Assembly: GCF_001949145.1 (NCBI RefSeq)
Contig: NW_019091360.1
Coordinates: 4,296,159-4,360,158, forward strand
Source: Acanthaster planci
Lineage: Eukaryota
Direction of reading: 5' to 3'
DNA: 64,000 nt
Shown: piece by piece, positions 4,717 through 60,775 of the stretch
Numbering within the stretch: position 1 is the first letter of the stretch
How the letters are laid out: every line of letters begins with the position of its first letter
Translations under genes and position numbers: made by a program
Notes under the pieces: model-generated
Told to the model about the DNA's origin: nothing
Database searches by the model: none
What the model saw: only the letters and a program-made list of their open reading frames with translations

Positions 4717-4888
4717 TACGGGCGTTTCACAATAGTGCGCCTCTAAGAGTTTGCAACGCACTGGCCAATCATAATGCGCGAAATCTGTCGACCTAATGCG
4801 CATTTGGAAAGGGTGGACAGATTTCGCGCACTTTGATTGGTCAACGCGTTGTGCACTCTTGGAGGCACATTATTATGAATCGCCCGTA
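4717..4888. mobile_element. Palindromic MITE (foldback)
   Basis: Termini TACGGGCGTTTCACAATA ... TATTATGAATCGCCCGTA; internal arms (TGGCCAATCATAATGCGCGAAATCTGTC / GACAGATTTCGCGCACTTTGATTGGTCA) are reverse complements; second copy at 17655-17784. Confidence 0.8.
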
Positions 4889-7770
4889 TTGCAAATAATG
4901 TGCATGCTTAATCGGGGGATTGGGCGTGGCCGACTTTGAAGGTGACCGTTTTTAGTTTTTGTTAGTAAAGCTCCGATGTGAGCAACTGTGAAACATTGTG
5001 AGGTTTTGAGATAACATAACAGGACAATTGATGTTATATTTGTTTCACTTGGAATTAGTCGAATAAAGTGGAATCATAATTCCGTCAGGGTTGGATCCAG
5101 GAATATTTCCAGGAAGGGGGTCAAGCTGGAGATCTTTTATTAATGTCTAAGTTTTGCGGCGGGAACGATAATGAAACATAACATGGCATACATTGTTTAC
5201 AATGGTATTGGTGCACTTGCCTTTGTACACTTTAGTTATTGTTTTATCATCTTCCCTATTTCTATTACCTTTTTTGTCTCAAAGTGGGGGGGGGGTGCGA
5301 CTCCTCCCCCCGATACACATCTGCCCGTCCTGGAATAACTTGGATAGAAGATCGGTATAACTAAGGACATTGCTGCGGTTTCAGAGTAAACAAATTACAT
5401 GAGTAAGGAGATCTTAGCAGGTTGTGCTTTATTCTCTCAGATGTGTGCTACATTGCCACATTGTAAGGTGTTTGCATGAAAAGTGTGGTGTACTGTTAAG
5501 TGACATCCTTCGTCGATAGTAAAACTTAGCCTTCACCGATGTAACAAATGATGGCGTAACATAACGAACTGCTCTGAAACATCTCCTCACAAAACACTTT
5601 TCTTTGCTCACGCGGTATAACTCGTCTTTATGTCTATAGTAACTCGGGAAAACAACTTGTTTTGCTGTAGCATTCATCTCGGCATACGTTGTTTATAAAG
5701 ATTACTTTCAAAATGTGGATTTACGTTAGCGTGAATGTAAAATATATTCGTACAGATATCAAAGAGTTTTAAATGGTACACCCGGTGGAATGACTATGGG
5801 AGGGGGTGGGGGAACATCCCCCAGCGGATGCCTTTGCTCCTGGGTGCCCCCTTGCCATTTTAAATCTATAAATAATCCCCGTTGAGTTTATACAGTTACG
5901 GTATGGAGTTGCAGCTTATTTTCTTGCAGTGGCGTAACTAGGGCTAAATGTCGGGGGGGGGGGCATCTGGGGGTGTTAAGGGGCACCACGAAAAAACCGA
6001 GGATGAATCCCCGGATGATCATTACTTCTGTTAAGCCTTAAAAATAGGAAGATCGCTGCTGTTGAGGGGTTGCTGCCCAAAGAATTCATATCTCGAACAT
6101 CCCCTCACTCAGATACTCCGATTTAGAAAGTATGCGCTCCAGAGCTGTATTTGTAGAGAGATAAGCACCAGCTTCAAATTTTGGAAACAAAATGGTTGTC
6201 CACTACGTGTAGAGTAGAGCGTGTGGCTCTTGTACACCAACTGTCCATATACACTGACGCACACACACAAGTGTGTATTTGCCTGCAACTGGGGACCACC
6301 TGTTGTTCCTCTTTTGTTTGCACTTTTTTAGAAGACCACCCATATGTTTTGTACACAGTTGTCAATCGGGGACCCTCTGTCAATCGGGGACCTTATTGTC
6401 CTCTATTGTTCAGGGTCCCCAATTGAATCCAGAAACAAACTAACTTACACCGGTCACTTTACTTCCAACTATTATAGTCGTAACTATATATACACGGCTT
6501 TGATCTTTTCTGGCTACAGAAACGCCCCCTGACGGGCAAAGAAGAGACAGATTGTTGGCAAATGTCCAACTGACAAAACCAGAAGTTTTTTTGAAGTTCT
6601 TCAGGTTTTGAGTGGATTCCTCGACAAGTCCTGGATGCCTCTGTAACACTAAGAAATAATTTTGTTCCAAGAAGAGAGCAACGGGGGACACGCCCATCCT
6701 CCAAATGGGCAAAGTTTTTGATGCATAGTGTGAAAAAAAGGCAATTTCGTGGGTAACAGGACTCGTTTCCTTCCCAAAGTGTTTACAAAACTAAGGACTT
6801 TGAAAATTGTTTGGCCCCCCTGAGAAATTGTCCCTGCAACGAAATTTAGTTTAAGCTCCGCCCCTGTGCCTATATAGGGAAAATGATTCAAAGTAAACGC
6901 TGTGTTCTGATTTGAACGATATTGTAATACTTTCGTGAAGTCTGCAGAAGACGTTTATTTTAGGAACATCTTCAAAACCAGCTAACTGGTGCTGTTGTGT
7001 AGGTGCAAAATCAAAGCTGCGTTTTCTTTCTCCAGTGTGATACTGAGTGAGTTGACGTGACGTCACGGTGCGTCTATACGTTTTAACGTGATTCTACAAA
7101 ATCACTTCCAGCGTCAGAATGTTCCAAATGCAGTTTGTTCCGGAATTAGGTTCAGTGTAGATAACCAAGACCGTGTTGGTTAATGCATAGAAGTCGATTG
7201 CACGTCACTAGTCAACATTCGAAATTGCTTTCATTGTAAAACGTGGAAATGGCCAAGCTACTGGAACGTGTTAATTTCAAAGACTCCATTGGATTACCAC
7301 TTAAATCAAACATGGAACCCTACCATTACTCCAGTGCTTTTAAATTGACAAAAACACTTCCTGAAAATCGGCATTTGGTGTGAGTACTTATAATGCGGTC
7401 TTATTAAAGTCACTTATGATGTGATTAATGTAGGCACATGCCTGCGGCCATGTAGATTTCCAATCACATCCGTCAAAGAGGGTGCACATTTTCTCTCATG
7501 GGAAGCCACTAAGTGCCAGCCTCAATGTTCCAAGTCTGGACGTTGATTATTCAACGGCCCGAAGAAGTTTGCAGCTTAATTGATTTGGAAGGGACGTCGG
7601 TCAGAGACGCACCTGACGATTTAAGGCAATTCTCTCATTTGAAAGTCTTATGTTTCCATGAGACTAACAGCATGAAGTAAAGAAGATGTTGAGGCAAGAA
7701 AAGCAAACATGCAGACATCTGCTGGTAGTCGGTGGACAGACAAACAACTAAAAAAAAAGATAAAAGGATG

Positions 7771-11659: not shown

Positions 11660-12136
11660 TTACAATGTGAAGTCATCGTAATCTGCACCATCTCTCTTGC
11701 CAAAGAATAGACCGAAGCCATACTCATCATGTGCCCTCTTGCTTTGTTGATCAGCTCTGCCACTCTTCCTTTCATCATGATGTAGCCAAGTACCTCTTTT
11801 CCCCCAGAACATACCGTGACCGTAGTCGTCCACTTTGGACTGTCGTTGTTTGCGTAGGAACCCTTCATGATCGCCAGGGTTGTTTGGGTCTTGCAGAGCT
11901 AGCAGTAAATCCAGCACGGAACCCGAGTCCCTTGGCTTATCCAGTAACATTGACTTGGCCGATTCTGCCAGCTCTTTGGAACCCTGATTTGTCATAGCAT
12001 CGGAGGGGTCTAACCACGTGTTCAGTCGTTCCCGCCTGTCGTTGCCATCAGCTACGTCACGAAGAGGCAGGCACGCGATTGGCGAAAGCAAAAGGCACGT
12101 AACTGTTGCTATGGCAACACTAGGCCAATTATTCAT
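11660..12136 (-). CDS. CCK: Sulfakinin/cholecystokinin (SK/CCK)-type neuropeptide precursor, 158 aa, single coding exon
   Basis: ATG at 12136 begins a signal peptide (MNNWPSVAIATVTCLLLSPIAC). Two peptides with amidation/cleavage signals: RKQR-QSKVDDYGHGMFW-GKR (11795-11842) and KR-AHDEYGFGLFF-GKR (11693-11734), each with acidic residues before a sulfatable Tyr at position -7. Near-identical to starfish SK/CCK peptides (Asterias pQSKVDDYGHGLFWamide, GGDDQYGFGLFFamide, from memory). Splice acceptor TTTTCTTCTGCACTGCAG|GTCACA-ATG. Confidence 0.95.
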   Translation of the reverse strand: MNNWPSVAIATVTCLLLSPIACLPLRDVADGNDRRERLNTWLDPSDAMTNQGSKELAESAKSMLLDKPRDSGSVLDLLLALQDPNNPGDHEGFLRKQRQSKVDDYGHGMFWGKRGTWLHHDERKSGRADQQSKRAHDEYGFGLFFGKRDGADYDDFTL

Positions 12137-17654: not shown

Positions 17655-17784
17655 CGTTGGCCAATCACAATGCGCAAAATCTGTTGACCCAATGCGAGTT
17701 TGGAAAGGGTCAACAGATTTCGCGCATTGTGATTGGCCAACGTGATGGAAACTCGTGGAGGCGCGATATTGTGAAATGCCCGTA
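17655..17784. mobile_element. Truncated second copy of the palindromic MITE at 4717-4888
   Basis: TGGCCAATCACAATGCGCAAAATCTGTTGACCCAATGCGAGTTTGGAAAGGGTCAACAGATTTCGCGCATTGTGATTGGCCAACG...TATTGTGAAATGCCCGTA matches the 4717 copy; the left terminus is missing. Confidence 0.8.
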
Positions 17785-20700
17785 TTAGTCATTGTTATGT
17801 CTCGTTTTTAGCGCTCTAGTTTACATTCTTGTCAAGGGGCATCACTGGTGTATTATGATTAGCGGAATCTAGACAAAACTTTGAAACTTTTCCCGTTACA
17901 TTCGGTGTTTGTAATTGTCTTTTGAAATGGGAACATGAAGATAATTCTATGAAGTTCAAAATAACAACGAAATAAAGCATAATTGCTTAAATATTTTGTA
18001 GAAAGCGAGGACACTACACACCATGTATATAATATATTTCCCCCCTGGAATTTACCACAAAAATAAAAGATAAGAAATGCGGATGTGAGGCCTGTCGCTG
18101 GCCGTTTTTTAAGATCACTGTTCGCGTCATTTTGAGGTACGGATTTAGACGTGCTTTCAAGTGTATCAAACTTTACGCTTGGTAGTCATTGAATTATCTT
18201 GATTCCTTATACCTCTGGATGCTATGCATTGTATTCCTGAAGACTTTAGGTTTGTAGAAAAAAAATACAGTCGCAGTATTTGACCTCCAACTGAAATATA
18301 TTCCTGGGCATAGATCATAATGTCGCCTGGTATTCGTAGGGCTATTTTGCTGGCTGTCAACAAGCCATGAAATTGGTAGTTAAATCTACATGGAATACAT
18401 GAGACGTTGCAGGGATAATTTGATTCACCTGCAGGTTTCACTTTTCCTTTTTTTTTTTTAAATGAAAAGACCAGCCAGTGATATAATCAAATCCGAATAC
18501 CACACCTGCAATAATAAGCGTTACTATATCAAACTAAAATTTCTATGCTTCCACGTTACCTTCACACAATGTTGAACGGTGGTCAAACATTATTGAAAAA
18601 TTTTAATATAAAAATTCATAAATCGTTTCTTACAGTCTGTGAAGCAGGTGTTTGCCATCTTCCAAGGATGGTTTTGGTGGCGGGTAGACAAAGACGATTC
18701 GGAAGATTAATAGTAAGAGTCTCTGTTTCATATCACAATCCCATTAAGATTACATTTGTTTTGCGGTTGTTTGGTTGGTTTGTCTTGTCGTGTTCTTTTT
18801 TAGATATTCTTGTTCAGAAAAAAAAGAAAGGATTGATTTGATGGTAAAAAGCTTTGAAATTATCGGCTTAAAACCTGTTAACCGTCTTAGTGTATAAATG
18901 AGATTCCTGTATGCTAAATTCAGTTTGGAAATGACCCCCTTTGTTTGAATTTTCTAATCCTCACATTTGCCGGTGTGCTGTTCAGTTTGTTACCTTTATT
19001 TATTTGTCTTCAATCATCATAACTGGCTGACCAAAGTGTCAGTTGACAAATGTCGGAAGCAACTGACAGGTCACTCAAAAAATGTCCGACATTCACCAGG
19101 CAAAACTCCACAGCCATAGGTCAACTTACGTGCATGGACTTAAAGAAATTCTCGCTGTCCGTGTTGCAAATTGGTTAATAAACCCAATGATCCTAAACAC
19201 TTATATGAAATAAAAAATCAAGGTATATAGATATGTCCTGTTCAGACTACAATGTCAAAGTATCCAAACAGATCAGAATGTATCACGTGTCTACTCCACG
19301 ATATATAGCAAACTATACGCTTTGTTTACTAGCCACGAATACTGAAATGAGTAACGGGTGCTGTGAATTCAATGTATATTATGCATTCATTCAGTCTAAG
19401 GAAAGTTTGTTAATATCTGATGGGCATGGAGTATGCTTCGAACACAATGTCATACTAACTGTGTGACAAGCTGTAGGAGGTTCCTTTCTCTAGGGTTCCT
19501 TTCTCTAGAAAGCTTCTCTGTCTGCGCTTTTGAATTGACATTGGTAAAATAGATGTTGTTGGACCGTATCTTCATTGTAATTCAGTCATAGTCATTCATG
19601 GTTGTCATTTCTATTCTTACTGTAAGTATGTCCACTTGAATGCGAAATTAAAAACCGCCTCCTTGCTAGCCTTGGTCTTGATTGATTTTCTGAATTTAAG
19701 CAATCAACGGATAACCTCCGCTAAATATCATCCGCTGATGGTACTTGGCAGGGTACTTAACTCACCAAGCACGTCTCTAAACGGACTCCTACGTGAAAAT
19801 ATATTGTGTCCTGGGGGTAGAGACGTGGAGCCTTGTCTCTTGAACCTTCTTGAACAAGAATGTTGGACAGGTTTTGGGTGCGGCGTGTAACACGACGTTC
19901 ACTAGTTTAGAAGGGTTGATTGATACCATTTACAATGCATTCCATCATCTGACATGTTTTAATTACTTGTTCCAAGACTTACGGCAGTCTTGAGCCTTTT
20001 GCTCAGCCTTTTGCCGATATCTGATGCCTTGCTTTAGGGTATCTTTAACTGTCTGTATAATAATTTGACTCTCACAAAATTATTCCTTATTCTCTTAAAT
20101 CATGCTTTTCTTTTAACACCTCTCACCGTTGCAACCAGGGGCATACATCCCGGGGGACGCAAAAATTGTTTCCCTCCACATTTTGACCAAAGGATGAGCC
20201 ATTTTATCATCAGCCCACGCGTTTTGTTTGTGAGAATCAAAACGTGAAGAATTTGAGGATAATTTCGAGCACTCCATCAGCCCAGATCTATGAAATAGAA
20301 CTGAGAAGCAGTAAACTAATTTGGCGAAAACTATTACAAGAAAGCAGTGCGGTGATGTTTATACATTGCCGCGTAAGTGAGCGAATATACAGTAAATTTT
20401 GTAGGCCTATGTCATGGATTTGGGTCATCGCAAATAAACCCAATCGCCAGTACGGATTTATGTCTCTAAATACATTCAGAAACATCGTCTGTCTAATCTT
20501 TCAACGAACGTTTTGAGATGAAAGTAAAAATATAAATCTATATCCTATGCTGAGGAAGATTGGAAAATGGGTGAGAAATTGCAAACGTTTATGCCACTTG
20601 TAATAATACTGTACTGTTGGCTAAATGAGAGTCTTGTCACTCGGTTTGGGCCTATGATATAACATTGGTCTGTACACTCAATATAAGAGGTAATCTACGA

Positions 20701-20943: not shown

Positions 20944-21609
20944 CAGGGTGTCATAAAAAAGGGAGATGACAAGATGACATTGTTTCAATTTTGTTATATG
21001 ACTGATTATTTTTGGCAACTGGTAACCATCATCTGTTTCCTTATGATGTCATCTTTCGTGTGACACCAAGAAGTCCGAGTTTTCGCCACAGATGACCGAG
21101 TATGAAGTGGTTTAATGGACCAGGCCAGAAATGGCTTTGCGCCTAATTGCTGCTTTGATGTTAAATTCCTACTGTCCAGAGATGGCTGTTTTGTCCGAAT
21201 TATGTAATGTTTGCTAGAATCTCCAAACTGCATATTAACTATTTTGAAGCGATGAGAACAAGGGCAAAAATTTGAGTTGAAAGAAGTTGGGGGCATATTG
21301 AAAGAAAGTGCATGGTGTTAGGCTGAATAAACCCCTAACTGTGGGTGTCTTTGATTTAATGATTTTGGTACTATACATTATGCTTCACGCTGTGCAAACC
21401 TGTGACGCATCTAGTGCAAAGCCATTTCTGACACGGTCAACGGTCCATTAAACCACTTTGTGCGCGATCATGCGTGACAGAAATGGGGATTTTTGGTATC
21501 CTATGAAAGAAGACATCATACTGAAACAGATTACATTGACCATTTACAAAAATAATGTCACATTCAAGAAACAGATTATTTAATCTCGTTTACATTTTTA
21601 AACATCCTG
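20944..21609. mobile_element. Tc1/mariner-like MITE with long subterminal inverted repeats
   Basis: TA|CAGGGTGT ... ACATCCTG|TA termini with TA on both sides; ~150-200 bp imperfect inverted arms (AAGTGGTTTAATGGACC...CAGAAATGGCTTTGC / GCAAAGCCATTTCTG...GGTCCATTAAACCACTT). Confidence 0.75.
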
Positions 21610-29029: not shown

Positions 29030-29970
29030 TCACTGGATTCCCCAAGAACAGTGAGATACCTTCAGCAATGGAGACTGGGCGGGTAAGCTTGCGGGTTCTG
29101 GCAATTGTGACGTAAGCGCCTTATCTGAACTGATCCGTTTTGACCCGGGTAAATGAATTACGAGACTGTCGTTTGAGAAAGTGCAGTCGGATGCCGTAAC
29201 AGAACTGACCTCGTCGAACCGGAGAAAGCCGGCATAACTAATAAAACGAATGAAAAGTATACGAAGAAGCGTCGGGGTTACCGTGTTTGGGGAGCAAATT
29301 TTGATTGTTTGTGGCGTAATCGGCTCTTTCCGAGGTTTCGTATAGATACGATTGTAGCCCTGCACAGCCGATTTGAACCATGGACTCTCGGTTGGAGAAA
29401 CTAGGCCGCTCGAACGCCGGGAACGTACAACCGGTTATTGCTGGTAGTTAGTCACAAGCAACATGCAACATGGCGGCGTCCCTGTACGTTATTCGAGAGT
29501 TAATGTTTGGATAACCGGGCTGAATTCTTTTCTGTTTAAACAGGAACATTAATTTCTGTGTTATGAAGAATAATTAATGTTACTTTTGCAAAATTTCCTA
29601 TAGTCTGTGGCTCTGTAAGCCATCACTCTACTTTTTGCAATGTTTGCAGCTGTTCAAAAATCAAAATCTCACGAGTTTTTCCGTGTGTTCTTGTAAAACC
29701 CTGACGAGGAGGTGGTGTCTGATCCTGTTCCGAGAGCAGTGTTCTGGAGTCGTGTTCCTACCGTTCGAGCGCGAGAACAAGAAACCTGTGTTGAGAACAG
29801 GTCGCCCGAACTCGACCATAGTGTCAAAGTGTCCTGCGAGGTCGGGCCATGTCCCGTGCAGTTTAAGGGCCCGGGCCCCGCTCGGCTGATTTGCAAGCAT
29901 ACAACACCTGCAGGTGAAGAAGTATGACACCATGTCCAGCCAACCACTTACACCGCCCCTTCTCGAGAGT
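29030..29970 (-). mobile_element. Internally deleted DIRS/Ngaro-like tyrosine-recombinase retroelement remnant
   Basis: Minus-strand translation SPTESPWFKSAVQGYNR...ISYAGFLRFDEVSSVTASDCTFSNDSLVIHLPGSK contains the YR box I (GFLRxxE) and the downstream SK motif; fused directly to the non-coding block shared with 1-368. Confidence 0.7.
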
Positions 29971-30049: not shown

Positions 30050-33000
30050 TTAATAATGCGGTGAAAGTTCTGTTTTTCACAAGAATTTAGGAAAGATTTG
30101 TGTGTATTTCAGACGGGGTAAGATATTTTTGAGGATTTGTCTTTGTGTAACATATTTTCGACAGGTAAGGAGAAAATGTTCGACATTATCAACACATCCA
30201 CATATATCACAAAGATCATTTGGGTGTTTACCGATCTTATGAAAAACTGGTTAAGACCCTTGCATGTACCTAATCGTAACCGGTGTATGGCTACTTCCTC
30301 GGCACGATTCATTGTCCAGTTTGGGAACAAGTCAGAAGGAGACATCATTGTAAATATTATTGGTATGTTTTGGGATTGATTTTTCCAGTTATTTTGAAGT
30401 TTTACTTTAAGAGTGTGTTTAACTTAATTAATCGATAAAGGGATGGGAAGATCAATACTGTTTTTCTTGGTCGCGTTTTTAGCAATCTGATTAGCTTTTT
30501 CATTTCCTGGTATACCGCAGTGACCGGGGATCCATTCAAAGTGAAGAGTGTTCCCTTGATTGCCGATATTAATCGTGGTGTGGCGAGTATCACAAACAAT
30601 TTTATCTGCAGGGAAAGGTTTATCGATTGCCTGCAAAGCACTAAGACAATCACTAAAGATGCAACCTTGTAATGGTTTTGAGTCTTCAATCCATTCTAAT
30701 GCAAGAAGAATGGCAAACAATTCTGCAGAAAAAAATTGATATACCATCATTGATACGAAAGCCTTTAGAGTAATTTAATTGGGGAATGTTTATAGCGCAT
30801 CCAACAGTTTTGTTATCAAGGTCTTGAGAACCATCAGTACAGGCCTATATTTGTAAGTAGTTCCCCAGGTAGTGTTGTTAACGCCAATAGTAATATTTCT
30901 TTTTTCATAAGTATTGTCTGTATGAGCTACTTGGTTAAAAATGTCCGTAGAGAAATGAGCTTTTCTGTAACGCCAATAAGAAAAGATATTATTGAGGGGG
31001 AAGATGGTTGAAGGATAATGAATGATTCTCGCTTCGTAAGGTGTTTTATAACTGGAGTCAGACCATTTGTCCTCAAAATAGTGTTTTTGCCAATTATTAA
31101 GGTTAAAATGTTTATTTGGATGGTCCTGGTGGGCATTTAGTTTAATAGCATATAAGCTAGCTAAAAATTATCGTCGAAGAGCGAGTGGTGGTTCGCCACA
31201 TTGAATGTGTAGTTTAAAGAGGGGAGAGCCCTGAATCGCACCAGTGCATATTCTCAAAGCTTGATATTGGATACTATAAAGTTTTTGTTTAAGAGTAGTT
31301 GAGGCTGAATCAAAGGCTTCCCAACCATATTCTAGGATGGGTTTTATGAGGGCACAGTAAAGTTGGTAAAGAGATTGGCCATGTGCCCCCCAAGAGGTAC
31401 CATCAACGCATCTCAGAATATTCAGTCTTTTTTTGCACTTCATAATAATATCATCGATTTGTTGTTTCCTGGTGAGTTTACAATCCAAAGTAATACCAAG
31501 GAATTTGGCAGCAGATTTGGTCTGAATCTTAAGGTCTTGGATACGTAAAGAAATGTTACCATGAGTTTTGTTGGTAAAAAGGACAGCAACTGTTTTCGGG
31601 ACCGAGAGCTTAAAGCCCCATTTATCAATTTTTAATGTTATTCACATCCAGTTGAATTTTCCTTTCCAGACAGGAGATATTCCTATTTGATTTCCAAATT
31701 GCTATATCATTCGCATATTGAGTCATATTAGCATCAATTATATAATTCGAGAGATCATGTTGAAAATGATGACAAGGTATTCCCGTATTTGTCAGGTAAT
31801 CGTTTGATGACAGCATTACTGATGCCATCTTTACCAGGAGAGGTACAGTTACTGGAATTAATGGCGTGATTAAGTTCCTCTATTTCGAAAGGATCATTGA
31901 TAACACTATCGTTGTTTTCATTAAACTGGAAGGCCTCTTCAGTATCATTTTTAATGATGTTGAAAGGAGGATTGTAATTACGATTACTACTAACTGCAGC
32001 AAAGCTGCTAGCCATGGTGTCAGCCATTTCTTTGTCAGTAACCACATCAGTGTTGTTAAGGCAAAAGGTCGGGATGCTGTTGCTGTGGGTCTGGCCAATA
32101 CATTTGATTTTATTCTAGACTTTTTGGGTATTAGTTCTGGGGGTTATTTCTTTACAGAATCTCTCACAATCTTTTCTTTCAGCTTTATTTATGGTTTTCT
32201 TAGCAATAACACTAGCTCATTTTAAGCTATCAGGTCAGAAGGCAAGCATGTTTTCTTGAGGCTTTTCAAAGCTTGTCTTTTTTCAACTATGGCTTGTTTG
32301 CATTCTTCACTCCACCAAGATTTTGGGGGACTTGTGATGATTGAGGTGAGTTTTTAGGAATGGAATCATTCATGGCAGAAACAATTTGTTCGATAAATTT
32401 ATCATAGACTTCATTAATGGTATGGGAAGGGTTGGGTTCTGAGCTGTGCTTATTACATGCAGTTTTGAACATATTCCAATCGGCTTTTTTGAAGGACCAC
32501 TTCGGAATTGGATTGGCTAGATTTTGGTGAAAAGAATGGTCAATTTCCATGATAACAGGACAATGATCACTTCCCCATGTGTCATTTATAATTTTCCAGT
32601 TACATTTAGCAGCTAAATTTGGGGACATAAAGGTAATGTCTAGACAGGAGAAAGTGCCTTTGGGGATGTTAACTCTTATGCCCTCACCAGAGTTCATACA
32701 GACTTAAGTTTGTCTCGGCAGTAATGTCATCTATAATCTTGCCATTATGATCCAAAGAGGAACTTCCCCGGAGGGGGTTGTGTCCATGAAGGTCGCCACA
32801 ATCTATATTAGGAGTATCTGTTTTATGAAAAATCTCTATAAGGGAGCCATCAAGCTTGTTGCAAGGATTGTACACATTAATCAGTTTAATTTTTTTCCGG
32901 CACTCGGTGTAGAGTTCACCAACTTGGTATTTGATTTGGTTAACTGAGTGTGACAGGTGTCTAAAAGCTAAACTACGTTTGATGAAAATCGCACATCCTC

Positions 33001-34430
33001 TACCCCATTTTTCGGGGCTGTGTTTGTCCAGTCATTACGGAATATCATAGCCCGGTAAATTGGAAATTTTCCCTTCTTTGAGCCAGGTTTCCTGAATTAA
33101 GGTCAGGCTTGTGAGTCCAAGAGTTTATGGCATTTTAAAATTCGTTACCATGAGCTAAAAGAGATTGCGCATTCCATTGTAGAATAAGAATCATTAACAG
33201 ATAAATCATGAAGATGTGTTGATTGGTTTACCTTTTGGAGTGTTACTTCAGCTTGCCTCGTCATTAGTTGGATTCTTGTAGCTAACTCTACTCTTACGGC
33301 TTGAGCCACTTCGCTTTGTTCTGATTAGGACTCGGACTGTGAAGATTGACTTGGTTTCCATTGTTTGGATTTGGAAGCGTCCTCAAGGTGCTCAATGTGC
33401 TGGACCAGTTCCTTATCAGCTGAAAGTCTTTCTTTCTGGTTTTGTATGGTGTCCCATATTTGCATAGTACCAATGAGTAATTCAGTGAGCTATTGCTCGT
33501 TACAAATGCACTTAATGTGTTCAGTTTTTGTTCCCGTAGTTTCTTCTGTTTCAGTGCAAGCATCTTTGGAGTTGGCGATTTGCATGACAAGAGTCGACTA
33601 GTTGTTCTCCTCGTTAACATTTATACGATGAATAGAACTGTGCTCATTGACAGTATTAGCAGGTTTCGATGAGGGTGCTGATTGAGTGATGTTATCTGGT
33701 CGAATTGAGATATCAGTCTTAATGGCTTTTGCTGTGTCAGCATAAGAGATATTATATGTTACTCTGATTCCCTGAATTTTCTTGTCTTGTTTTACTCTAT
33801 TGCAGCCTGCGTAAGCAGATGAGTGTCTTTCAACGCATCTACAGCGCTTCACCTGATTCTTTCGGTTACATTATTCAAAGGTGTGGGGTCCCCCACATTC
33901 AACGCGTTAGAGTTTTCAATTTTCCTGCTTGTGCTGAGGTGTGACATTTAACAACCCTTTGGTTGTTTTTCGACACACTTTTAATGTAGGCTTTACTTTA
34001 TTAAGTGCCGCAGCGGTGCGTATTGGATTGACTTTAGATGATTTGATATCAGGAGAGTTAGTAACCAAAGTAGGTTGGGAAATGGAGGGTTGTTCTTCGG
34101 TGTATCGTCGCTTTGACGGAGTTTCACTACAGGGGTATCATAATCCGAGTCCGAATAAACATCACTGTAATTGAGTGGTTTCGGGCGTTTTCTATTCTGT
34201 CTTTGCGTTTGCGCATCATGCGTTTGAGAGTTATTTTGTGCTTGACTGATTAGAACATCTATGGTGGGTCGTGGTTGATTGTTTCCATGTTTTTCCTGGA
34301 CTTCCATTGGGGTTTGTTGAGATGCCGATTGGTTCCATGACGAATTATCAGATTCGGAGTCAGTTAATTCCCAGTCGGTGTTATTGGCCATGAGGCCAGA
34401 TTTAGCTCAGAAAGAGATGAAAAGCTCGAT
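30050..34430 (-). mobile_element. Decayed non-LTR retrotransposon (I-group LINE with ORF1, APE endonuclease, RT, RNase H, C-terminal CCHC)
   Basis: ORF1 remnants 33294-34391 with a knuckle-like CRCVERHSSAYAGC. ORF2 from ~33209: LQWNAQSL, LIQETWLK, GDLHGHNP, CLDITFMS, GSDHCPV (APE); SPGKDGI, QYANDIAIW (RT, YADD degenerate); TDGS, SAELFAILLALEWI, IFSDCLSALQAI, WIPGHCGIPGNEKAN (RNase H); CDICGCVDNVEHFLLTC. Many frameshifts and stops. Confidence 0.92.
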
Positions 34431-36750: not shown

Positions 36751-39700
36751 TTTTATTAATAATATCACAACAGAGAAATCTTGTTTCCCCTCCCAAAGGG
36801 ACCTCTGCATGCCAATGGGGAAAAAAACACTTAAAAATCCAAAAGTATTAAATTATTACATCAGAAGACGGAAAGGTCATGATATTTTCTGTATCTGTTA
36901 GATAACTGATAGACGAAGCAAATAGCCGGAGAGATCTGATGCAGAGGCTCTTTCTTCATCCGATCTCTGGTGTCCCACGGGGCAGTTTCTCCTGATCGTG
37001 ACAGAACACAGGGACATACACACATTACTCAATATGCCCCTAGGATTGGGGTCTTTAAATCCAAGCCGGCGTCAGTGCAGTAAAACGCAGCAAAGACTTT
37101 AAGCCACCTCTTTGAGATGATCGCGGAACCTTATTGCAGGATCGTTGTCACATCCTCGACGAACACGAACACCGGTCACAATCGCCTCTGGGGACGTTAG
37201 CCTCGACGTAGTTGAAAAGCCCAAAGACCTGTCGTCTTATCATTTGCTATTTAAATTCTCACGTGTGTTAGCACAGCCTAACTACATGTAGGGCCACATG
37301 GGCAAGTTATAAACACAAACATTGTCCGTTTTACTTGCAACCGGCATTCAATTACAATTCAAAATCATGTCCTTGTTTGATTTCGACTGTCGAGTGATTT
37401 TATTTGTGTACTTTTGGTCAACAACTTCCACTATGACGTTTTGATATCGGTATTTCGCAATAAAATTTTGAAAAAGAGTATCACGTCACAAGTTCAAAGA
37501 TTAGAAATTACAATAAGTATACATTGCAACTGAATAGCAACAAAGTTGAGTTAAATCAAATGATACAAAATACACTGACTGACAAAATTATGAGAATTTG
37601 TTTCAACTACCATGTGTAAAAACGTCTATGTAAAGAAATGTAAGTATAGATTGAATAAACTTTAAATGTGGGTATTTAGTGCATTTATAATTTGTGAAAG
37701 TTACTCAGGGATCTCCATTATAATCCCGAAAATTGATCAGTATAAATCTCTATCCATGTAAATATAAATGAATATATCCTCGGTCAGTATGATACGCATT
37801 TGTAGGGGTAGTAATCTAATTTTGCAAATCATATCTTTTCAGGTTGTGGATGCTTTAACTTCAGTTTTACACGAATACATCAACGTTATCACGCAGCGCA
37901 GAACTCTTTCGTTGTTGATTGAAACTGTGAAATTAATTGATTAACGAAACTCAGGTAAGCCCATTTGCGCTCAAAAGCTAATTTAACCCAAAGTTTCAGA
38001 TTTTGATTTTTAACATCTAATTTAAAACTACAGTATGGTTCATTTGCTTTCTTTGAGGTCCCAACATCAGATGATCTAAGCAATGTTATTTTACAGTTAT
38101 ACACCTCACTTAATTGACAGCACGATTTTAAACAGCGTTGTTTTATGTGCCAATAACAATTTATGCGAACATAGCACGAACACAGTCACGTGGTTTCTGA
38201 TATCAAGCACATTGCACTGGGTATAGTGCGTGTCCAAGTCTTGGGTGGAGAAGGCAATGACCGTCCATTGTTTTTCACCTAGAAAGGTTCCTAATGCTCT
38301 CCCTCCCCACTGGACATGCTACTGATTGGGAAGAATTCTAGTATTATTAAGAAAACCTTGATAAAACGACCTTACTCAACAGTTTTCAACTGCTAAATAA
38401 AGCACACACGTATAACTCTGCGCGTGTCATTAGTTTGAACATCGTTATCAATGAAATCAAATGTGTTTTCTTCACAAGCAGCTTTCTCAACTTTCTCTCT
38501 CTGTTTGCTTTATTCGGAGAAAATACACAAAACTGTTTTACTTTAAAAAGGAAGCCCCGAACGCTCGATACTTACACGTAAAATTAAAGATTTTTTAATG
38601 CTGAAGGACTATAAATCGGTAAATTGCTAAATTTATCTGCAGGCATAGGAACTGACCCGAGGATGTCTACTGCTTTGACTATAAAATATCCAATGAATAT
38701 ATTCACGTGAGTTCGATCCATGAAGTCAAGGTTTACTGTCATTCTTCCCTATTACTTTTACGATTAGAAAAAAACAACAGGAGCCCTCTAGGATAAACCT
38801 GGATGACCACACGTTATGCATTAAAGAAGAATGGAACATTCATAAAACGTTTTCTTCCCATAGTCTTCTTTTATTTTGTCAAATTTACAATGTCGGAAAA
38901 AAGTGTTAACAGCCATTGCATTGCTTTGATTAACATAATGTTAAGCGTTTTATGTAGTACATGTATTCATTAATGTTTATTTTACCATTTTAAAGAAATT
39001 TAGTAAACTATTCGAGAAGTTACCTTGTAGTTGATTTTATGTTTCTTCCATTAACTGTGCTTGATGTACCATTTCTGCATTTGAACAGATTTAGAATTGT
39101 TCATTCTTATAAAGTTATAGACTAATTCAAGCGTTTTGTTCACGTTTAATTGCATGAAGCCAAAAAAGACAAAATGCCCATTTTCAATTCCTTTTTTGTA
39201 TTTCATTATCAAATGGAGACATTTATTGACGTGTGTCTAGCTGTGAAGCTCTCACATAGTTATTTTGGCATCGACTTAATGACAAGTAAAATGAACGTGA
39301 AATAATCTTGAAAGCTGACTGCGCTCAAAGGCAGTCACGGGGGGGGTAAGTATTTGCTGTTCTGTTGGAAATCATTAAATCAGTCAAACGCCAATCTCTT
39401 AAGTAGAGGGCCCGGCATTGTTTCTACTCAAGTACCGCCCCATGTACTTCCATAATAATCATCATTAACAGTGCACTTGCAGAGAGGGTTTCACTAACTT
39501 CATTAGCAGAGTTTGTTGACTTTCATATTGTCGTCAGATAGTGCTAAGCGATATTTCATCTTCAAGCCCAGTCAGTTCTCGCATATCTCTTCGTGTCACC
39601 TTAAAAAGAACAGTACTGGGCAATAAAGTATTGAATGAATAAAAGACGGTATGAAATACTTGTTCAACCGGGAATGGATGCAGAAATCATTTTCTAAACA

Positions 39701-40513
39701 CGAAATCGGCTAACTTCATAAGCAACACGAGTTTCAACTGAAACAGGGCAAGAGGAAGGTAGTCGGGTTTCTTGAACCCAGGATGCTTACTTTAGGAGCA
39801 GTAACAAAGAGACCCACTCCAATAAACCGCCTCTTTTAACGTCAATAATTTGTGTCCAAAAGAAGGGGTACTCAGGACTCTACGAAGGAGCCTTTCTCTA
39901 CATCAGATCATTCCAAACCTCTACGCATCTTAGCTACTACATGGAATATTTCGGCCAACTCATTGCACTTGGGGCGTATTCTAGGTTATCTAAATAAGAA
40001 TAATGTCTCATAGAACGAAATGACGACTACGTCTTAGTGCGCTGCGATATGGCGTGTCAACAAGCCGCAGTCATAGCCATCAATAATTTTTGTCCTACAT
40101 CTATCAAGGTTCATTAAAGCAGTTGCGTTCAATATGTTCGCAAAAAAAAAGCTCACTGCTTGTCTTCGTTGTGTTTTGTATCGTCGGAACCAGTTGGCCT
40201 ATATACAGCAAGGAGACAGCACTGAAATAAATCCAGGAGAAAAATTGCGCAATTTTGGATTAAGGCATAGTGATTTTAGCGCGACTCTTAAAAATGAAAT
40301 AAACAACACGGAACACTTTGAGAATTAATGTCCACGTAACACATATCATTCTTTGGTGAATTCAGAAATTCATCTGATTATGGATGATACCATCAGAGTG
40401 AATTCTTCAGCCAGCTGTAATGTCACGATTCTATAGTCAGTCTATGCGGCAAGGCTGCAAGGAACAGTGTCGCATGTCGGGTAGGAAATAAGTACTTCAG
40501 TTTGTCTAGATCT

Positions 40514-40795
40514 TTACTCGTCTTCGAATGCGTAGTAACCAGGATCTTGAATCACCAACTCGCGATTTCCAAGCATCCTTTTACGGAAGAGAGTACCGCC
40601 AAAGTGGTAATCATGTTGCTCGGGTCTCCTGTTTAACGAGCTCAGCGGACGCCTTTTCCGCTGTGATTCTCGTTCAATCTCTGTGTCTAGGTTGTACTGT
40701 TGACGGAGATCGTCTAGTCTCGATGCATGTACCTGCTGACGGACTAGACACCAACAGCATAATATGGCGACCATAAAGACGGCCTTGGTTTCCAT
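40514..40795 (-). CDS. Putative neuropeptide precursor, 93 aa, divergent SK/CCK-like paralogue (DYHFGGTLF)
   Basis: Signal peptide METKAVFMVAILCCWCLVRQQVHA; acidic spacer; basic sites RKRR, RR and RKR flanking ...PEQHDYHFGGTLF; acidic Tyr-bearing tail DPGYYAFEDE. Splice acceptor TTCCTCCCTTATTACAG|AACATA-ATG lies 6 nt before the ATG, with A at -3. Secreted precursor status is well supported; family assignment is inference. Confidence 0.8.
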   Translation of the reverse strand: METKAVFMVAILCCWCLVRQQVHASRLDDLRQQYNLDTEIERESQRKRRPLSSLNRRPEQHDYHFGGTLFRKRMLGNRELVIQDPGYYAFEDE

Positions 40796-40970
40796 TATGT
40801 TCTGTAATAAGGGAGGAATTTCATTCTTGGTTACGTTTGTGGTCCATATTTTAAGTCTGTCAAGAGCACTCTTAGCCTTCCAATTTCAAAGTGATTAATT
40901 TTCAGTCATAACATACGGAAAGTTAACAATTAAAGACTACAAGAGATGTTAGACTAGTGATCAATATAAT

Positions 40971-41694
40971 GGGTCGTATGAATAAAACGTAGCATTTCCA
41001 TTTTACCACTATTTTTAAAGCATTTACTCGTGTTTGTATGAATAACAACGAAGCAAATGCTTTTACTTGAGTGCAGTTGCTTTTAAGTAAAAGTATTTAC
41101 TTTTTACTCTTTAAGCTTGTGCTGGACAATAAGCAGTTGCTTCATTTTGTATGAATAAAAATGAGTAAGTTCTACAGAATTGGAGTATTTACTTGACATG
41201 TTTCAAGACCGGGTCGGGACAAGCTTGAAAACGAGGAGCATTTACTAATGTTCAAAATGGCAGCGTTCATGAATGTCATTCGAAAGGAAAAACTGTATGC
41301 CTTTAGGAGGAAATCTCAAGAAACCAGATGCAGACAGTTGTACCGATTTGAGAGTGGCAGAGCAATTTTCTTCATCGAGGTTTTTGCGATCAAAATTACT
41401 GCCATCGTGCTTATCTGCCATGCTGAAGTCTCAAGATACAGCACCGTGCTGCACTGTGCATCTGTACATGCAGACAACGGAAGCCCTATTGTGCAAAACC
41501 ATCCGGCTGTGTAGTCAGCCACAAGCATAAAATATTTGCTAATATTTATACTAGTACATACTGATTAGTAAAAAAAACATTTTACTCCTACAAATTCAAG
41601 CATTTGCTTGTTCTTAATGGTTTGACTTCTCAGTAAATGCTTCTAGTGTTTGCTTGAACTTCATAGCATTTGCCAGTTTATATCCATACGACCC
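40971..41694 (+). mobile_element. PIF/Harbinger-like deletion derivative in the intron upstream of the second precursor exon
   Basis: TIR GGGTCGTATGAATAAAAC ... GTTTATATCCATACGACCC. Internal translation MAAFMNVIRKEKLYAFR...CRQLYRFESGRAI loosely resembles a Harbinger transposase N-terminus. Confidence 0.6.
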
Positions 41695-44600
41695 AGTGAC
41701 TGGCATATCGAGAAAGTTAACAAAAAAATTAACAATGAATTAAAAAAGAAACAAATGCCATCCCCTATGAAAAAAACAAAACAGACTCAGTTTCAACAAA
41801 ATGGATAGCCCATCTAACCATTTTTCTTTTTCAATTTCTCGAACAGCGACTTCAACGTTAAGTTACGTTTACCTTTTTCTAAACATTGTAGTGTCTTGTT
41901 CAAGCCTAAAGCCCAGTGCACTCGTACACAGTTTATCTTTCCACAATAAATTGTGGGATCTGGAGTAATTTGTACATGTGGATTTTTGTACAAACATTTC
42001 AATGAACATTATAAACATTGGTTACAGTTTGTGTAAGTAATCTAGCAAAGTCCAACCTAAAACAAATACATTTATTTATCATCATTTAGTAATCAGCAAA
42101 TCTTACACTTTCTTGGAAATTTCACCCCTTGGTGCAATTCGGTAGTTACAGCGAAGAATAGATAGCTCTCCTGTACGAACAAAAATGATAATAAATAATT
42201 GGAACTTGATATCGGCAAGGTTAGAGACACGAAACACCATGTCCAATAAATTACAGGTTTAAATTAGGATTCTCATTTTGGAGACATGTTTATAATCGGC
42301 CGCTGTTGTATAGATATCAGTGCAAGGGGAGAGCTTTAACAACGCCTTCCAACAGTTAGCACCCTCCTTTGGGTATTGTATAAATGTTGATGATGACCCT
42401 ACTTTCAACTTATATCACCGCTACGACGTCGTTTGTAATGAAACACAACGATTTAGTTCTTCAAAGGCTGTGCAGTATGGTCAAGCCGTGAACATTGAAG
42501 TATGTCTGTTTATTCTTTAACATGATTTGGACTATGATGAATTACAGCCGCCTGATTGTTGTTTTAGTCTCGAAATTTAAACGTTTTTAACAACAGCTTT
42601 CGTGATTGAGTAGACAAATGTTGAATTGATGCTGTGGTTATAGAATAGGTGGCTTCCTGGCTACTTTCGCCCATACCTACGTCTGTTCATGATGGATGGG
42701 TCAAATTAAGCTGAATAAATAATGAGCTGTTCCTCTTAACAAATTTGTGTTTAATAATTTAACATTTTAGCATAAACCAACGTGTCATACATCTCACAGA
42801 CTGCACGATCCAGCGCAATTAGTGGACTAGGAGCCCCGTGTGTGTGATTTGGGAAGCATGTCTAACTTGTGGTATTTCAGTCTTAGAATTTCCGACCCAT
42901 TAGAGAAGGGAATTACCTGATAACTATGTTTGTACTTACTCCAGTCAGCTTGTAGTGATTGCAAATGGTCCTTTAGAACGAAATCCGGAAAAAAATAATT
43001 CTGAAATAAGAGAATATCAAAAGCAAAGCTCACTGACTAACAATTTAAAATGTTCAAATTAATATGACGAATGATTGATGGTACCAATCCCAAACAGCCA
43101 AACGATTTCCTTACAGAACAACTGAGTTCATTTCGTAAAAACAAATTTGCTTCTAGAAAAATGCTTGCACTTTTCCTCGTTTCAGGTTCGATTTCTCGGC
43201 ATTTATAACACCTCACTGAGTTTTATAAAACTGTTCAAAGCACTTAATGGCAACTGATTTTGCTCTGGATTATTGGTTCAATCATAGAAAATCCAAGTTG
43301 AGATTTTTATGGAGACCGATGTGAAATATCTCGACAATGTGAGGGCGTGAGATGGCCACAGTTCATCCTACATACTTCTCTACATTGGTCTTCTAGAGTT
43401 GCTTGAACTATTGCTCACTGATTTATTACAAGTTCCCTTACCCCATGAATCCTTAATTGGGAAGTAACGAAAGATCTCCTATTATGACATTTCTTTGCGT
43501 GTGTGTGGATGTGTGAGTGATACGGGCGATTTGAACGATTCTTCACGTTCTTGCTCATCTATACAATAAATAAATGATTTTTTTCTAAACGCCAAATGAA
43601 TATGGTTCCAGCGGACAGTGGACCTCCCTTGCAATTCATTAGAAAGATTAGAATGTCGCTGTCAGTTTGGTTTAGGTGTTTATGTTAACTGGAAATTGCC
43701 ATTTGGTAAGGGAGGGATTGTGTAAACATGGCAAAGGCGGGGGATCAGTTTACTGGATGAAGAAATATTAAGCATGCTTTTCTCTTACCTGTAACAGAGA
43801 TCGTAATCTTCAAATTATCATAAAATGAGATTGAAATACCAAGGCAAAATGCCCAAATAAAATAGATTCCGATCTTTCCTGCGTCACAACAGTAGTAAAC
43901 AACACGAAGCATTTGGAATTGTAAGGACGAGGATAACAATGTCTGCTGTATAGTTTTTGGTAACAAAGCAAAAAAGTTACGCCCTGTTCTTGAATAACTA
44001 GAATTGTTTCGTAATTAATGAATTATATGCATCTTATGTACTGCATTTTATGGTTCAAAGCCCCAACAAGGAATGACTCCCAATCAAGTTTCCTCCTTCT
44101 TACTTTGATCAAAGACCAATCTCCGTGATGCTCATTAATTTACAACATTTTTATTTCGCGATTATGGTGACACGAAGTAAAATTAAATCAGGATATGATT
44201 CCCATTACAGGGAAGTGCGTAAATTTGATTTACCCCAAATATGCTACAGTATGCAAAATCTGCTAAGCTAAACTGGCTTCAAGTTGAACAGAATGTTTAA
44301 TTTGACTATAGAAGAATTGTACATGTATTTGTCATAAATTGGTAATTGATTACCATACCAAGGTCCAGCAGGAAAAGAAGTTCGCTTCATTTCTCTTTCA
44401 AAGACCACACCCTATCAACGTGTGGTTGTCAAAGGTCTGTTTATCAAAGAAACATGTAGGAACTCTTCGTTTTTCAAAGTATAATTTAGTTTCAGTTGGA
44501 AGAAGGCGAAGGCGTGGTGTTTAATATTGAGTTTTATGGATCAGTTTGACTTTGCTGACAATAAAGAGTGCAGTGACGCCCAAGAAAGTGAGTAGGACAC

Positions 44601-47775: not shown

Positions 47776-47980
47776 CTTTACCTTGAATAAACGGCTGCCG
47801 TCTGATTACCAGGTACTAATCTCCTTGTGTCGATCACTACCTTCTGTGTGCTGTTCAAATAAGTCCAGCCCGTTATATCTATAGCCTATGACGCCTACTG
47901 CCTCAAAGCCATTAACCAATCACAGCCTTCCGTTCCTTTGGTTCTTTATTTTACCTATCACCGGAACTGTACTGACGTGA
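47776..47980 (-). promoter_or_regulatory. Candidate first non-coding exon (~47782-47850) and core promoter of the second precursor gene
   Basis: Minus-strand donor CAAG|GTAAAG (exon end 47782); TATA-like CTATAGATATAA (47873-47884); TGACGC 47889-47894; TTAACCAAT 47912-47920; TGACGTGA 47973-47980. Confidence 0.45.
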
Positions 47981-55732: not shown

Positions 55733-58700
55733 CTGTACCAAAGCAGAACAAATTGATAGGTTTTGTCTTATAGCCACATATAGAAAGCCAATAAACAATG
55801 ACAATGGATTTCCAACTAATCCCCTATCTGCCAAAAACAAACATTGAGAAAATCCCACCAGGAACTTTCTGCTAACGTTTCCACTTGATGTTTCCCATTT
55901 TTCTGTTCTTGGCAAAAAAGCAAGTTCTTAAAGACTGGAAATGGTGATTTTCAACCTGTTCCATTAGTCCTAGGGATTATTGTGCTGTCGTATCTCTTGC
56001 ATTAACCAAAATTGAATTTCATTTACGCATTGGAAAATGATATTGTTTTAGTTTAAGTAGTTTGTAACTCGATCAGCCCTGGTATAATTACCTGAAACAA
56101 GAGGTGTTGCTTCCGACGTGCCACTGACTGTTTCTACATCAGAATCACTTCTAATATATGCTCCAATCATATCTTTCCCAGGGGCAAAAATATCGACACA
56201 GCTGCCATGGTTTGAGGCGTACCAGCGAGTGTCACTTTTCGTGGACGCACCAACGGTTATGACCTAGATGAAGCGACCCAAAAATGGTGTGTATAAGCTT
56301 TGAATAAATTATCACCCTTTGGAAAATATCGTTTTATCTACTGGATTCCTCTCATTCTTTTTTTAAGGTTCCCCCCAAAACAGTCAACCTCGCTTTCAAT
56401 TCAATATGGCCGACTTGTGGTGAATAAAGTAAGTTACATTCCATTGTTTCAGTGGCCTATCCAGTATAGGGAGGGGGTACTTTCCCCCTCTGACAGATAA
56501 TTATTGTTTACAAATAATACTTCATAGGGGAGTAGGAAAGAAAGTAATAGGTATATTTATTTATGAAATATTAGCACCAATAACCTAAAAAAATAATTTT
56601 TTCTCCCCCAACATCATGTTGAATGAGCCCGACGCCGCATTCAGTTTTAAATTTGTCCCCCTCCCCACCAAAAGCTGGATGCACCGCTGCTTGCCCTGTG
56701 CCTCGCCCTACCGGCTAACAGAGACTGTATAGTCCTGCACACGATATCAATTCTAGCCATGTAAACCCGCACTGAATAACGTTACACTTTCTAAAGGCCT
56801 GATCGTCCACATTTACCCGTTTGAAGTTCGCTGGGAAATCTTGGCAAGCGTCAACGTTGTCATTTCCCGCTGCTACCGCAATCGTGAATCCTTTATCCAT
56901 CGTGCGTGTCATGGCGTCTTCAAGAACCTTGTGTGTGCCACTTTGACCTAATGAGATGGAAGCGACTGCTGGCTTGGTAGCTGTGTTAAACATGATGTCA
57001 AGCGCTAGGACAAAATCGCAACACAAAGAGAAGCTATATTTTTATCGTTACATAACAAATCCGAAATGGTCATGGGGTGGGGCGAGTTCAGCGTTCTTGA
57101 AGCCTAAAATGGTAGTTTCACAAACTAGTATTTGCCGCCTTTATGCCAGTACCATAATTCATTAATTCAACGTTACATAACTCCGCCTTCAACAAGATTG
57201 GATTACCTATCAGGTAATTCACAACTACATGATATTGACCGGGTATTGACTAATACTGGAGTTATCGTAAGGGGGAAGGGATGGGTGTGGTTCCTGCAAA
57301 GGTCTGTGCCTCTGGGTTCCCTCTCCCTTGAAAGTTTGTATACATGTATACCTCTGTACAAACTGTCCAAAATGTCTGCATCTCCGGGAGTCAGACATAT
57401 TAACCTAGTTGCGCTGTTGCTCATCCATAACTCACCCTTGATGAGAGCCGACCAGGTACCTAACGCGTTACCAATCACATTAGCTACGACAATGTTGGCT
57501 TTATTGGCCGCACCATAGTGATTGCCTGCCGCGACAGAGGTAACCAACGTGCCGTGACCGTAGGGATCGTTACCCTGCATTGATACCAATAAATGGTTGA
57601 AAGAGAAAACTAGATCATAAATTTGGATGTCCGGGTATAAAACTGTTCTTCATTTTCTAAACAAAATTTGACAAACTTTTGAATAAAATAAAATGACATT
57701 AAATAAGCACTAGAATACTTTGAATGATATCATTGCTTGCATGTAAGGTTGCAAAATTATACAGGTGGTTAATTCTACAAGTTTTCTTCCTCTCTTGCTC
57801 TTCCACTGTAATTTCTGACCAAAAGGGGACTTACATTATTGTTATTCACATCGTAAGCGATAGTGACCGATCTTCCTGCAAAATCCTGATGGGTAGCCCT
57901 AATGCCGGAGTCAAACACCCAAATCTCCACATTCTCTCCATGATCTGTCAAAATACCGAGGATTTCATCATTGTTAGTCAGCCCTGTTTCGAGTGACTTT
58001 GCCTGACTACAACTGCGAAGCGCATCGACCCGGTTTAGAGCTGCCATTTGATCACATTTGCCATGGGATAGATCTTAATCGATGGAGATGTGGAGTTTAC
58101 ATATGAGAAACATTATTTCTCAGAACGAAGTTCTCTGACATTACAAACGAAGTATAGAGGCTGTGTTGTACCATATTATGTATGCTCTGTATGTATGGGG
58201 CACAAACATAGGCGTAGCGACTAGAGTCTGTGTGGGGGAGGGATGTGGCACCCACCCCCAATGATAAATTCCAGTTGGCAAATACAGATTCGGTTGGCAT
58301 GTGAATCCAAAAATGGTACATAAACAATCAGTTGGCCGCCGGCACCGCTCGTGAAGCCTGAAATGTAGCGTACCACGATTTCTATTTCCGCACTTTGTGA
58401 ATTTTACTCGGCGCGACTTTGACGAACAAGTTACACGTCGGCAAATTTGCTCTGGCACACCCCCATAGCAAATGCCTTAGCTACGCCCCTGGGCCGGCAC
58501 AAACTCTCTTGCCTTTACGACAGTTACGTACCTAATGTACACGAATTTGTAATTTTGTATGACGGTTTAGAACCTTTAAAATTTCTCACCTCAAACCTTT
58601 TGATCACGGAATCGTGTGACGCTGTTTTGGCGTTATACCTTCAAGACCACGTCGTAATTACGAATGAATGTTTTTAATAATACATAGGATAATTCATAGG

Positions 58701-60679: not shown

Positions 60680-60775
60680 NNNNNNNNNNNNNNNNNNNNN
60701 NNNNNNNNNNNNNNNNNNNNNNNNNNNNNNNNNNNNNNNNNNNNNNNNNNNNNNNNNNNNNNNNNNNNNNNNNNN
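60680..60775. other. Assembly gap (96 N)
   Basis: Run of N characters. Confidence 1.

Follow-up and report, generated by a model that had tools for sequence, protein, structure and literature searches.

The window analysed here, a 64,000-nucleotide stretch of the Acanthaster planci genome, carries two peptide precursor genes on its minus strand. One is the canonical SK/CCK precursor CCKP1 (11660-12136), a protein of 158 residues containing two peptides that are each followed by G-K-R, whose identity is 75% with a protein of Patiria miniata and, in alignment, 66% with one of Asterias rubens that falls in a cluster with the named CCK-type precursor, values that suggest a starfish nearer to Patiria than to Asterias. 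The other lies 28 kb upstream on the same strand, and is an intact ORF of 93 codons (40795-40514) encoding a CCK-like precursor. A preliminary description of this locus had taken the sequence L-F-G-K-R to be used twice in the canonical gene; we find that G-K-R does occur twice, but that it is preceded by other residues, the two sites reading F-W-G-K-R (Gly codon GGG, 11803) and F-F-G-K-R (GGC, 11701). Between the two genes (30793-34406, minus strand) is a broken LINE-like retroelement, one fragment of which matches Exo_endo_phos_2 at an E value of 2.9e-5, below the Pfam cutoff. The window also holds a subtilase-like fragment with an HGT motif (57206-57649, minus strand; below cutoff for Peptidase_S8, E 0.004), beyond which a further catalytic motif was not found in the window, as well as dispersed and inverted repeat pairs of 72-82% identity (1-369 with 29405-29766, 4717-4890 with 17655-17786, and 21005-21556) and an assembly gap of 96 N bases (60680-60775).

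Aligned raw RNA reads, which are our evidence of expression, together with RNA-like contigs show that the second gene is transcribed as a spliced mRNA of four exons, with the coding sequence entirely in the last. The first 5' non-coding exon (47782-47837) has an unmapped 5' end, the reads extending about 56 bases beyond the joint, and is connected to the second (42940-43000) through a GT..AG intron (joint 43000/47782; 7 reads in run X21 and 14 in X24). The second is in turn joined to a third (42107-42170; joint 42169/42939, cut +1, with 10 and 11 reads), and the third to the last exon (joint 40801/42107; 9 and 6 reads). All three joints are GT-AG on the minus strand and are seen in both raw RNA runs, and the latter two are also found in both RNA-like contig sets (X15 and X16). 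The last exon (39032-40801) opens with 6 nt of UTR, contains the CDS in full and continues for about 1.5 kb as 3' UTR, as delineated by the X15 contigs (39340-40801 and 39032-39345), an X16 contig (39874-40801) and raw-read depth; its 3' end is unmapped, with AATAAA at 39227 and 38981. Upstream of the first exon, a candidate promoter (47876-47977) contains a TATA-like TATAGATA at 47883, CRE half-sites at 47893 and 47977, and an inverted CCAAT at 47920, all of these being plain motif matches. An N-terminal extension of the precursor was considered and rejected, as the spliced UTR has no ATG. Within the last 5' intron, at approximately 41050-41700, many divergent, loose-ended RNA reads accumulate over what is probably a multi-copy repeat. 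Variants segregate in the 3' UTR at 39437, 39782, 39873 and 40185, with homopolymer length differences at 39338 and 40141, and none falls in the CDS among the variants listed in the compared runs.

Homologues of the precursor are scarce. When 1.84 billion representatives were scanned in full with HMMER, there were two matches, of which P0006, an ENA record of 89 residues, is clearly related (E 4.4e-25, 58% identical) and likewise contains one peptide ending in F-R-K-R, while P0007, a repetitive protein of 453 residues (E 5.7e-6, 27%) without the motif, was taken as a chance match. A word-based search with the single protein returned nothing, and repeated with the two-sequence alignment it returned P0006 alone among 71 candidates. 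Neither named starfish records (Patiria, Asterias) nor ophiuroid proteins were among the matches of these homologue searches. Nine metagenome loci (E 3e-4 to 6e-4) matched no more than the hydrophobic stretch of the signal (residues 5-37) and were rejected as chance. Pfam gave nothing meaningful for the precursor, and missed the canonical one too. Neighbours in the ESM Atlas come from mixed secreted-peptide families, mostly peptide-hormone precursors, which we treat as a lead only and from which no family was assigned.

Comparison with P0006 allows the parts of the precursor (40514-40795) to be delimited. A predicted signal peptide spans residues 1-24 (40724-40795), with a hydropathy peak of 2.7 over residues 6-16 and 14/24 residues identical, its cleavage being predicted after A24. 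Following a spacer (10/20 identical), the putative N-terminal cleavage site R46-K47-R48 (40652-40660) sits in a Q-R-K-R that is identical in P0006 (4/4). The predicted mature peptide is the 22-mer RPLSSLNRRPEQHDYHFGGTLF (40586-40651; 14/22 identical), expected as a free acid, in which Tyr63 (40609-40607) follows an Asp and is a candidate for sulfation; its calculated monoisotopic mass is 2626.32 Da unsulfated, to which sulfation would add 79.96. It ends at the putative cleavage site R71(CGT)-K72-R73 (40577-40585), identical in P0006 (3/3) and without the Gly that donates an amide, so that R-K-R stands on both sides of the peptide. D62 precedes Tyr63, and seven residues separate this Tyr from the basic site. 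An internal R-R is probably not cut, because Pro follows it and the residues are not conserved. The remaining tail matches in 4/20 columns; its Tyr-rich and acidic end (40517-40546) recalls the D-Y-D/E-D-F tail of CCKP1 and is absent from P0006. Conservation is thus concentrated on residues 45-73, where 21/29 positions are identical versus 4/17 in the tail (Fisher p=0.002), the difference from the spacer not being significant (p=0.22). With its signal peptide, basic sites, peak of conservation on the peptide and spliced, expressed mRNA, the protein has the general features of a neuropeptide precursor.

These observations bear on whether the gene is simply a vestigial duplicate, drifting since loss of the amide killed its ligand. 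The defining modification is indeed lost, and the 58% identity to P0006 lies below the 60-75% found for CCKP1 among starfish, a comparison in which the species pairs are unmatched. Against this, both copies have an unbroken ORF, the gene is spliced and expressed, conservation is highest over the peptide with its cleavage sites, and no coding variant is listed in the compared runs, and we regard decay as very improbable. With considerable confidence, the sequence comparison instead points to a functional peptide that would lack the amide.

The codon on which this depends was scrutinized closely. On the minus strand 40612-40574 reads D-Y-H-F-G-G-T-L-F-R-K-R-M, confirming the codons CTC TTC CGT AAA AGG first described; the CGT occupies 40585-40583, its C lying at 40585. 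Besides a naturally non-amidated peptide, the preliminary description had offered a consensus error or a segregating allele as explanations, under which the normal peptide would be amidated. We compared 8 of the 24 listed runs, six of which span 40585. CGT is unchanged in all four contig sets that cover the position, from four studies and in unbroken contigs: two that are RNA-like (X15, 39340-40801; X16, 39874-40801) and two that are DNA-like or unlabelled (X14 and X2, 40480-40830), one of the latter two being a possible source of the assembly. Of the runs under other organism labels, X19 is identical over 40480-40547 and ends short of the codon, and X20 gave no alignment to the window. Among the variants listed for the raw reads none falls at 40585 in X21 (about 12x in that bin) or X24 (about 15x). 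What could still speak for an error or allele is that G>C places occur outside the variants listed (3 in X21 and 2 in X24), and that contigs drop rare variants. With CGT in all four covering contig sets and Arg in the homologue P0006, however, such an explanation is already largely refuted, and we give it next to no weight. Recoding to Gly at the RNA level was likewise rejected, the RNA-like contigs reading CGT.

Because P0006 reads F-R-K-R, the Arg is neither an error, nor an allele, nor a recent slip, and the earlier suggestion of a recent single-base loss does not hold: at 58% identity Arg rather than Gly is what the sole clear homologue conserves at this site. It is correct that a single change at 40585 would restore a Gly codon, but this carries no meaning for the age or origin of the Arg, since any of the six Arg codons becomes a Gly codon by one substitution and the argument is therefore uninformative on timing. 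For the same reason the refutation then proposed, Arg codons in orthologues far removed from GGN, cannot occur. Judged from the two copies, the Arg at the amide-donor position is old. Moreover, the distance between Tyr and the basic site is not the same as in the canonical peptides, the difference being one residue, so that a point change alone is insufficient to account for the difference. We prefer a route in which a Gly-to-Arg change was accompanied by the insertion of one codon, as this keeps the terminal Phe, over an ungapped shift in which the column of the ophiuroid amide-donor Gly may instead have come to lie opposite Phe70 of the starfish peptide.

What kind of precursor this is must be judged from its relation to CCKP1 and to other echinoderm precursors. 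Several features are consistent with paralogy to CCKP1: the two genes stand in tandem on a shared strand, each has a single coding exon, and in the second gene the reads place the splice acceptor 6 nt before the ATG, which is the offset of the predicted acceptor in CCKP1. At the sequence level the two proteins lack a significant profile or DNA match. An hhalign comparison picks out exactly the D-Y..F..K-R block, with a probability of 0.1 and an E value of 0.56 that are not significant, and the best DNA match is no better than E 0.13, on which ground a recent duplication from CCKP1 was rejected. A generic pattern (acidic residue or Gln, then Tyr, 5-6 residues, F or W, G or a basic residue, and a dibasic site) matches at three places across the six frames, which are the present peptide and both canonical peptides, compared with a mean of 0.04 and a maximum of 1 in 100 shuffles, the pattern having been devised after the site was seen. 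It is also conceivable that the gene is a real precursor of another or new family, in which R-K-R is a plain tribasic site, Gly was never present and the likeness to CCK is convergent. The insignificant profile match, the identical R-K-R at both ends of the peptide and the mixed neighbours in the ESM Atlas are all compatible with this, and there is precedent, as motif-based 'CCK-like' labels in sea urchins and sea cucumbers have been reassigned to kisspeptin-type precursor 2 (PMC9400282; cf. PMC6586643, as far as these accounts describe them). It would nonetheless require the tandem arrangement with CCKP1, the shared acceptor offset and the match to an ophiuroid precursor described below all to be coincidence, and we consider it rather improbable.

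That match is to CCK-type precursor 2, a precursor with a single peptide described in ophiuroids (Zandawala et al. 2017, PMC5627052), and it suggests an identity that the preliminary description had passed over. As reported there for OvCCKP2 and for its counterparts in A. filiformis and O. aranea, these precursors are about 100 residues long, with one CCK-like peptide and a tail of about 20 residues, and the starfish proteins are similarly short, with a single peptide in 93 residues in the window and 89 in P0006. In both groups a block R-x-L-x-S-L is followed, after seven residues, by D-Y-x-F, and a terminal Phe stands ahead of the basic site; the spacing of seven agrees with two of the three ophiuroid sequences given, the third having six. 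Over this block, aligned ungapped and by eye with the published ophiuroid sequences, 8/18 residues are identical for the window protein and 7/18 for P0006, but the block was picked after the fact and an unanchored 8/18 (p 7.7e-6 per position) amounts to about 0.07 over some 9,400 pairings. Upstream of the D-Y, 4/13 residues are identical (binomial p of about 0.01 on an assumed background of 7%), and in the signal peptide K4, L12 and C16 are common to the starfish precursor and the ophiuroid sequences shown, identities that are not significant alone (p 0.06 and 0.6). The N-terminal R-P-L-S-S-L of the starfish peptide thus has a counterpart in ophiuroid CCKP2, and is absent from the peptides of CCKP1. 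There are also clear differences: the ophiuroid peptides as published have F-G-K-R with its amide donor, Y-G, and six residues after the Tyr, whereas the starfish peptide has F-R-K-R, Y-H and seven. A crinoid single-peptide precursor is likewise reported to retain F-G-K-R (PMC9793003). Combined with the tandem position, the single coding exon and the acceptor offset, this short motif, one homologue and a by-eye comparison with ophiuroids make it probable that the second gene is the starfish orthologue of ophiuroid CCKP2. The name itself is ambiguous, as a sea-cucumber precursor called CCKP2, like a sea-urchin 'CCK-related' one, was reassigned to kisspeptin-type precursor 2, from which the ophiuroid sequence, where the sources give it, differs.

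How the peptide should be classed is a separate matter. It has the C-terminal aromatic residue of the SK/CCK family, Phe70 after predicted trimming, which is kept in P0006, and the seven residues following D62-Y63 lie within the 5-7 from Tyr to C-terminus reported for the family (PMC8428848). It does not have a Gly donor before the basic site, either in the window, in any of the four contig sets or in P0006, nor the F-amide of ophiuroid CCKP2, and D-Y-H in both copies replaces the (D)YG common in invertebrate members. Because the amide and the Y-G are both wanting we do not file it as SK/CCK-type, and read it as likely a non-amidated variant derived from CCKP2. Of the explanations first put forward, the naturally non-amidated CCK-like peptide is therefore the one that stands, as a prediction from F-R-K-R without Gly here and in P0006.

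In standard processing a precursor loses its signal peptide, basic sites are cut by prohormone convertases, carboxypeptidase E trims the basic residues and PAM acts on an exposed Gly. Applied to this precursor, the signal peptide would be removed after A24, convertases would cut after R48 and R73, and carboxypeptidase E would trim R73, K72 and R71, leaving PAM without a Gly substrate, such that the 22-residue RPLSSLNRRPEQHDYHFGGTLF would end in Phe-OH with no amide and probably with a sulfated Tyr63. On balance we favour the conclusion that an expressed second precursor beside the CCK gene, likely the CCKP2 counterpart, releases without an amide a peptide that precedes R-K-R with Phe in both copies. 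Its conservation, including that of the N-terminal R-P-L-S-S-L block, suggests that the peptide would still be under selection. Its most likely mode of action, in our view, would be that of a secreted signal which activates the single amide-dependent SK/CCK receptor poorly and is recognised by a different GPCR or through a different binding mode.

Studies of related ligands set out what loss of the amide may entail. SK/CCK peptides are described as typically dependent on the amide, which is critical to their activity (PMC13548532) and indispensable at mammalian CCK2R, where non-amidated gastrins are reported to be almost inactive and where, in simulation, the free acid remained on the extracellular side of the receptor (PMC9899899). 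For A. rubens a single SK/CCK receptor has been reported, and the CCKP1 peptides that activate it carry both sulfate and amide (PMC8428848). Given a conserved peptide without an amide and a receptor that depends on one, action through a receptor or binding mode other than the classical SK/CCK one is most likely what the sequence predicts, although we put this at about an even chance. Its main rival holds that the free acid of a CCKP2 counterpart acts at the one SK/CCK receptor after all, whether by activating it weakly or partially or by serving as an endogenous antagonist to the CCKP1 peptides. The D-Y, internal Phe and terminal Phe are kept at a spacing compatible with that receptor, and a single such receptor is reported in A. 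rubens; the near inactivity of non-amidated gastrins and the position of the free acid in the simulation argue against it, as does a conserved N-terminal block that CCKP1 ligands do not have, and we hold this to be unlikely. Returning to the reading that we favour, a shift away from the classical receptor, its fullest form would be that CCKP2 was never lost in starfish and now serves amide-free signalling, the lineage having shed its amide donor because not SK/CCKR but a different receptor recognises the peptide by its N-terminal and sulfotyrosine part. We offer this tentatively. If true, starfish would have a natural CCK-type hormone whose own gene encodes it without an amide donor, and a dedicated receptor for it that is as yet an orphan.

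Taken together, our analysis suggests a fixed and conserved loss of the amide in a likely overlooked starfish CCKP2. In the 2017 account of ophiuroid precursors CCKP2 was reported as not found in a preliminary Patiria miniata assembly, and its loss in Asteroidea was suggested as possible (PMC5627052), a published inference that the present gene would correct. It would also add an overlooked peptide to the control of feeding in starfish, for which papers of 2021 and 2026 consider one precursor and two amidated peptides. Searching the literature by motif and by topic, which did not cover the 2017 crown-of-thorns neuropeptide list, we found neither a starfish CCKP2 nor this peptide reported. The supplements of two crown-of-thorns papers gave no match to the peptide motifs, in files that may not contain sequences, and among the descriptions of A. 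rubens np15-np25 given in PMC4772807 none fits the precursor. That motif and BLAST searches overlooked the gene may itself be due to the loss of the Gly. One of the uncharacterised crown-of-thorns precursors ApNp26-35 (Smith et al. 2017 or later) could be this same gene. More generally, the amide is seen as nearly obligatory in CCK/gastrin/sulfakinin signalling, so that a conserved, gene-encoded form without it would be a natural experiment in how, after duplication, a ligand parts from its receptor.

Among known systems, the nearest by position is CCKP1 of the same window (11660-12136), which shares strand, neighbourhood and the single coding exon with the second gene and differs in having two peptides, where the second gene has one longer peptide without the Gly. 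The precursor CCKP1 of A. rubens and its peptides ArSK/CCK1 and 2, as far as they are described by Tinoco et al. (2021; PMC8428848), are alike in the acidic residue before Tyr and the aromatic C-terminus; both peptides were shown to carry an amide and a sulfate and to be activators of SK/CCKR. A further parallel comes from mammals, where non-amidated, glycine-extended gastrin is likewise a CCK/gastrin-type peptide without an amide, described as nearly inactive at the classical receptor (PMC9899899). Here, in contrast, it is from the gene itself that the Gly is absent, in two species-level copies. Glycine-extended gastrins arise as intermediates in the processing of a product whose gene does encode the Gly.
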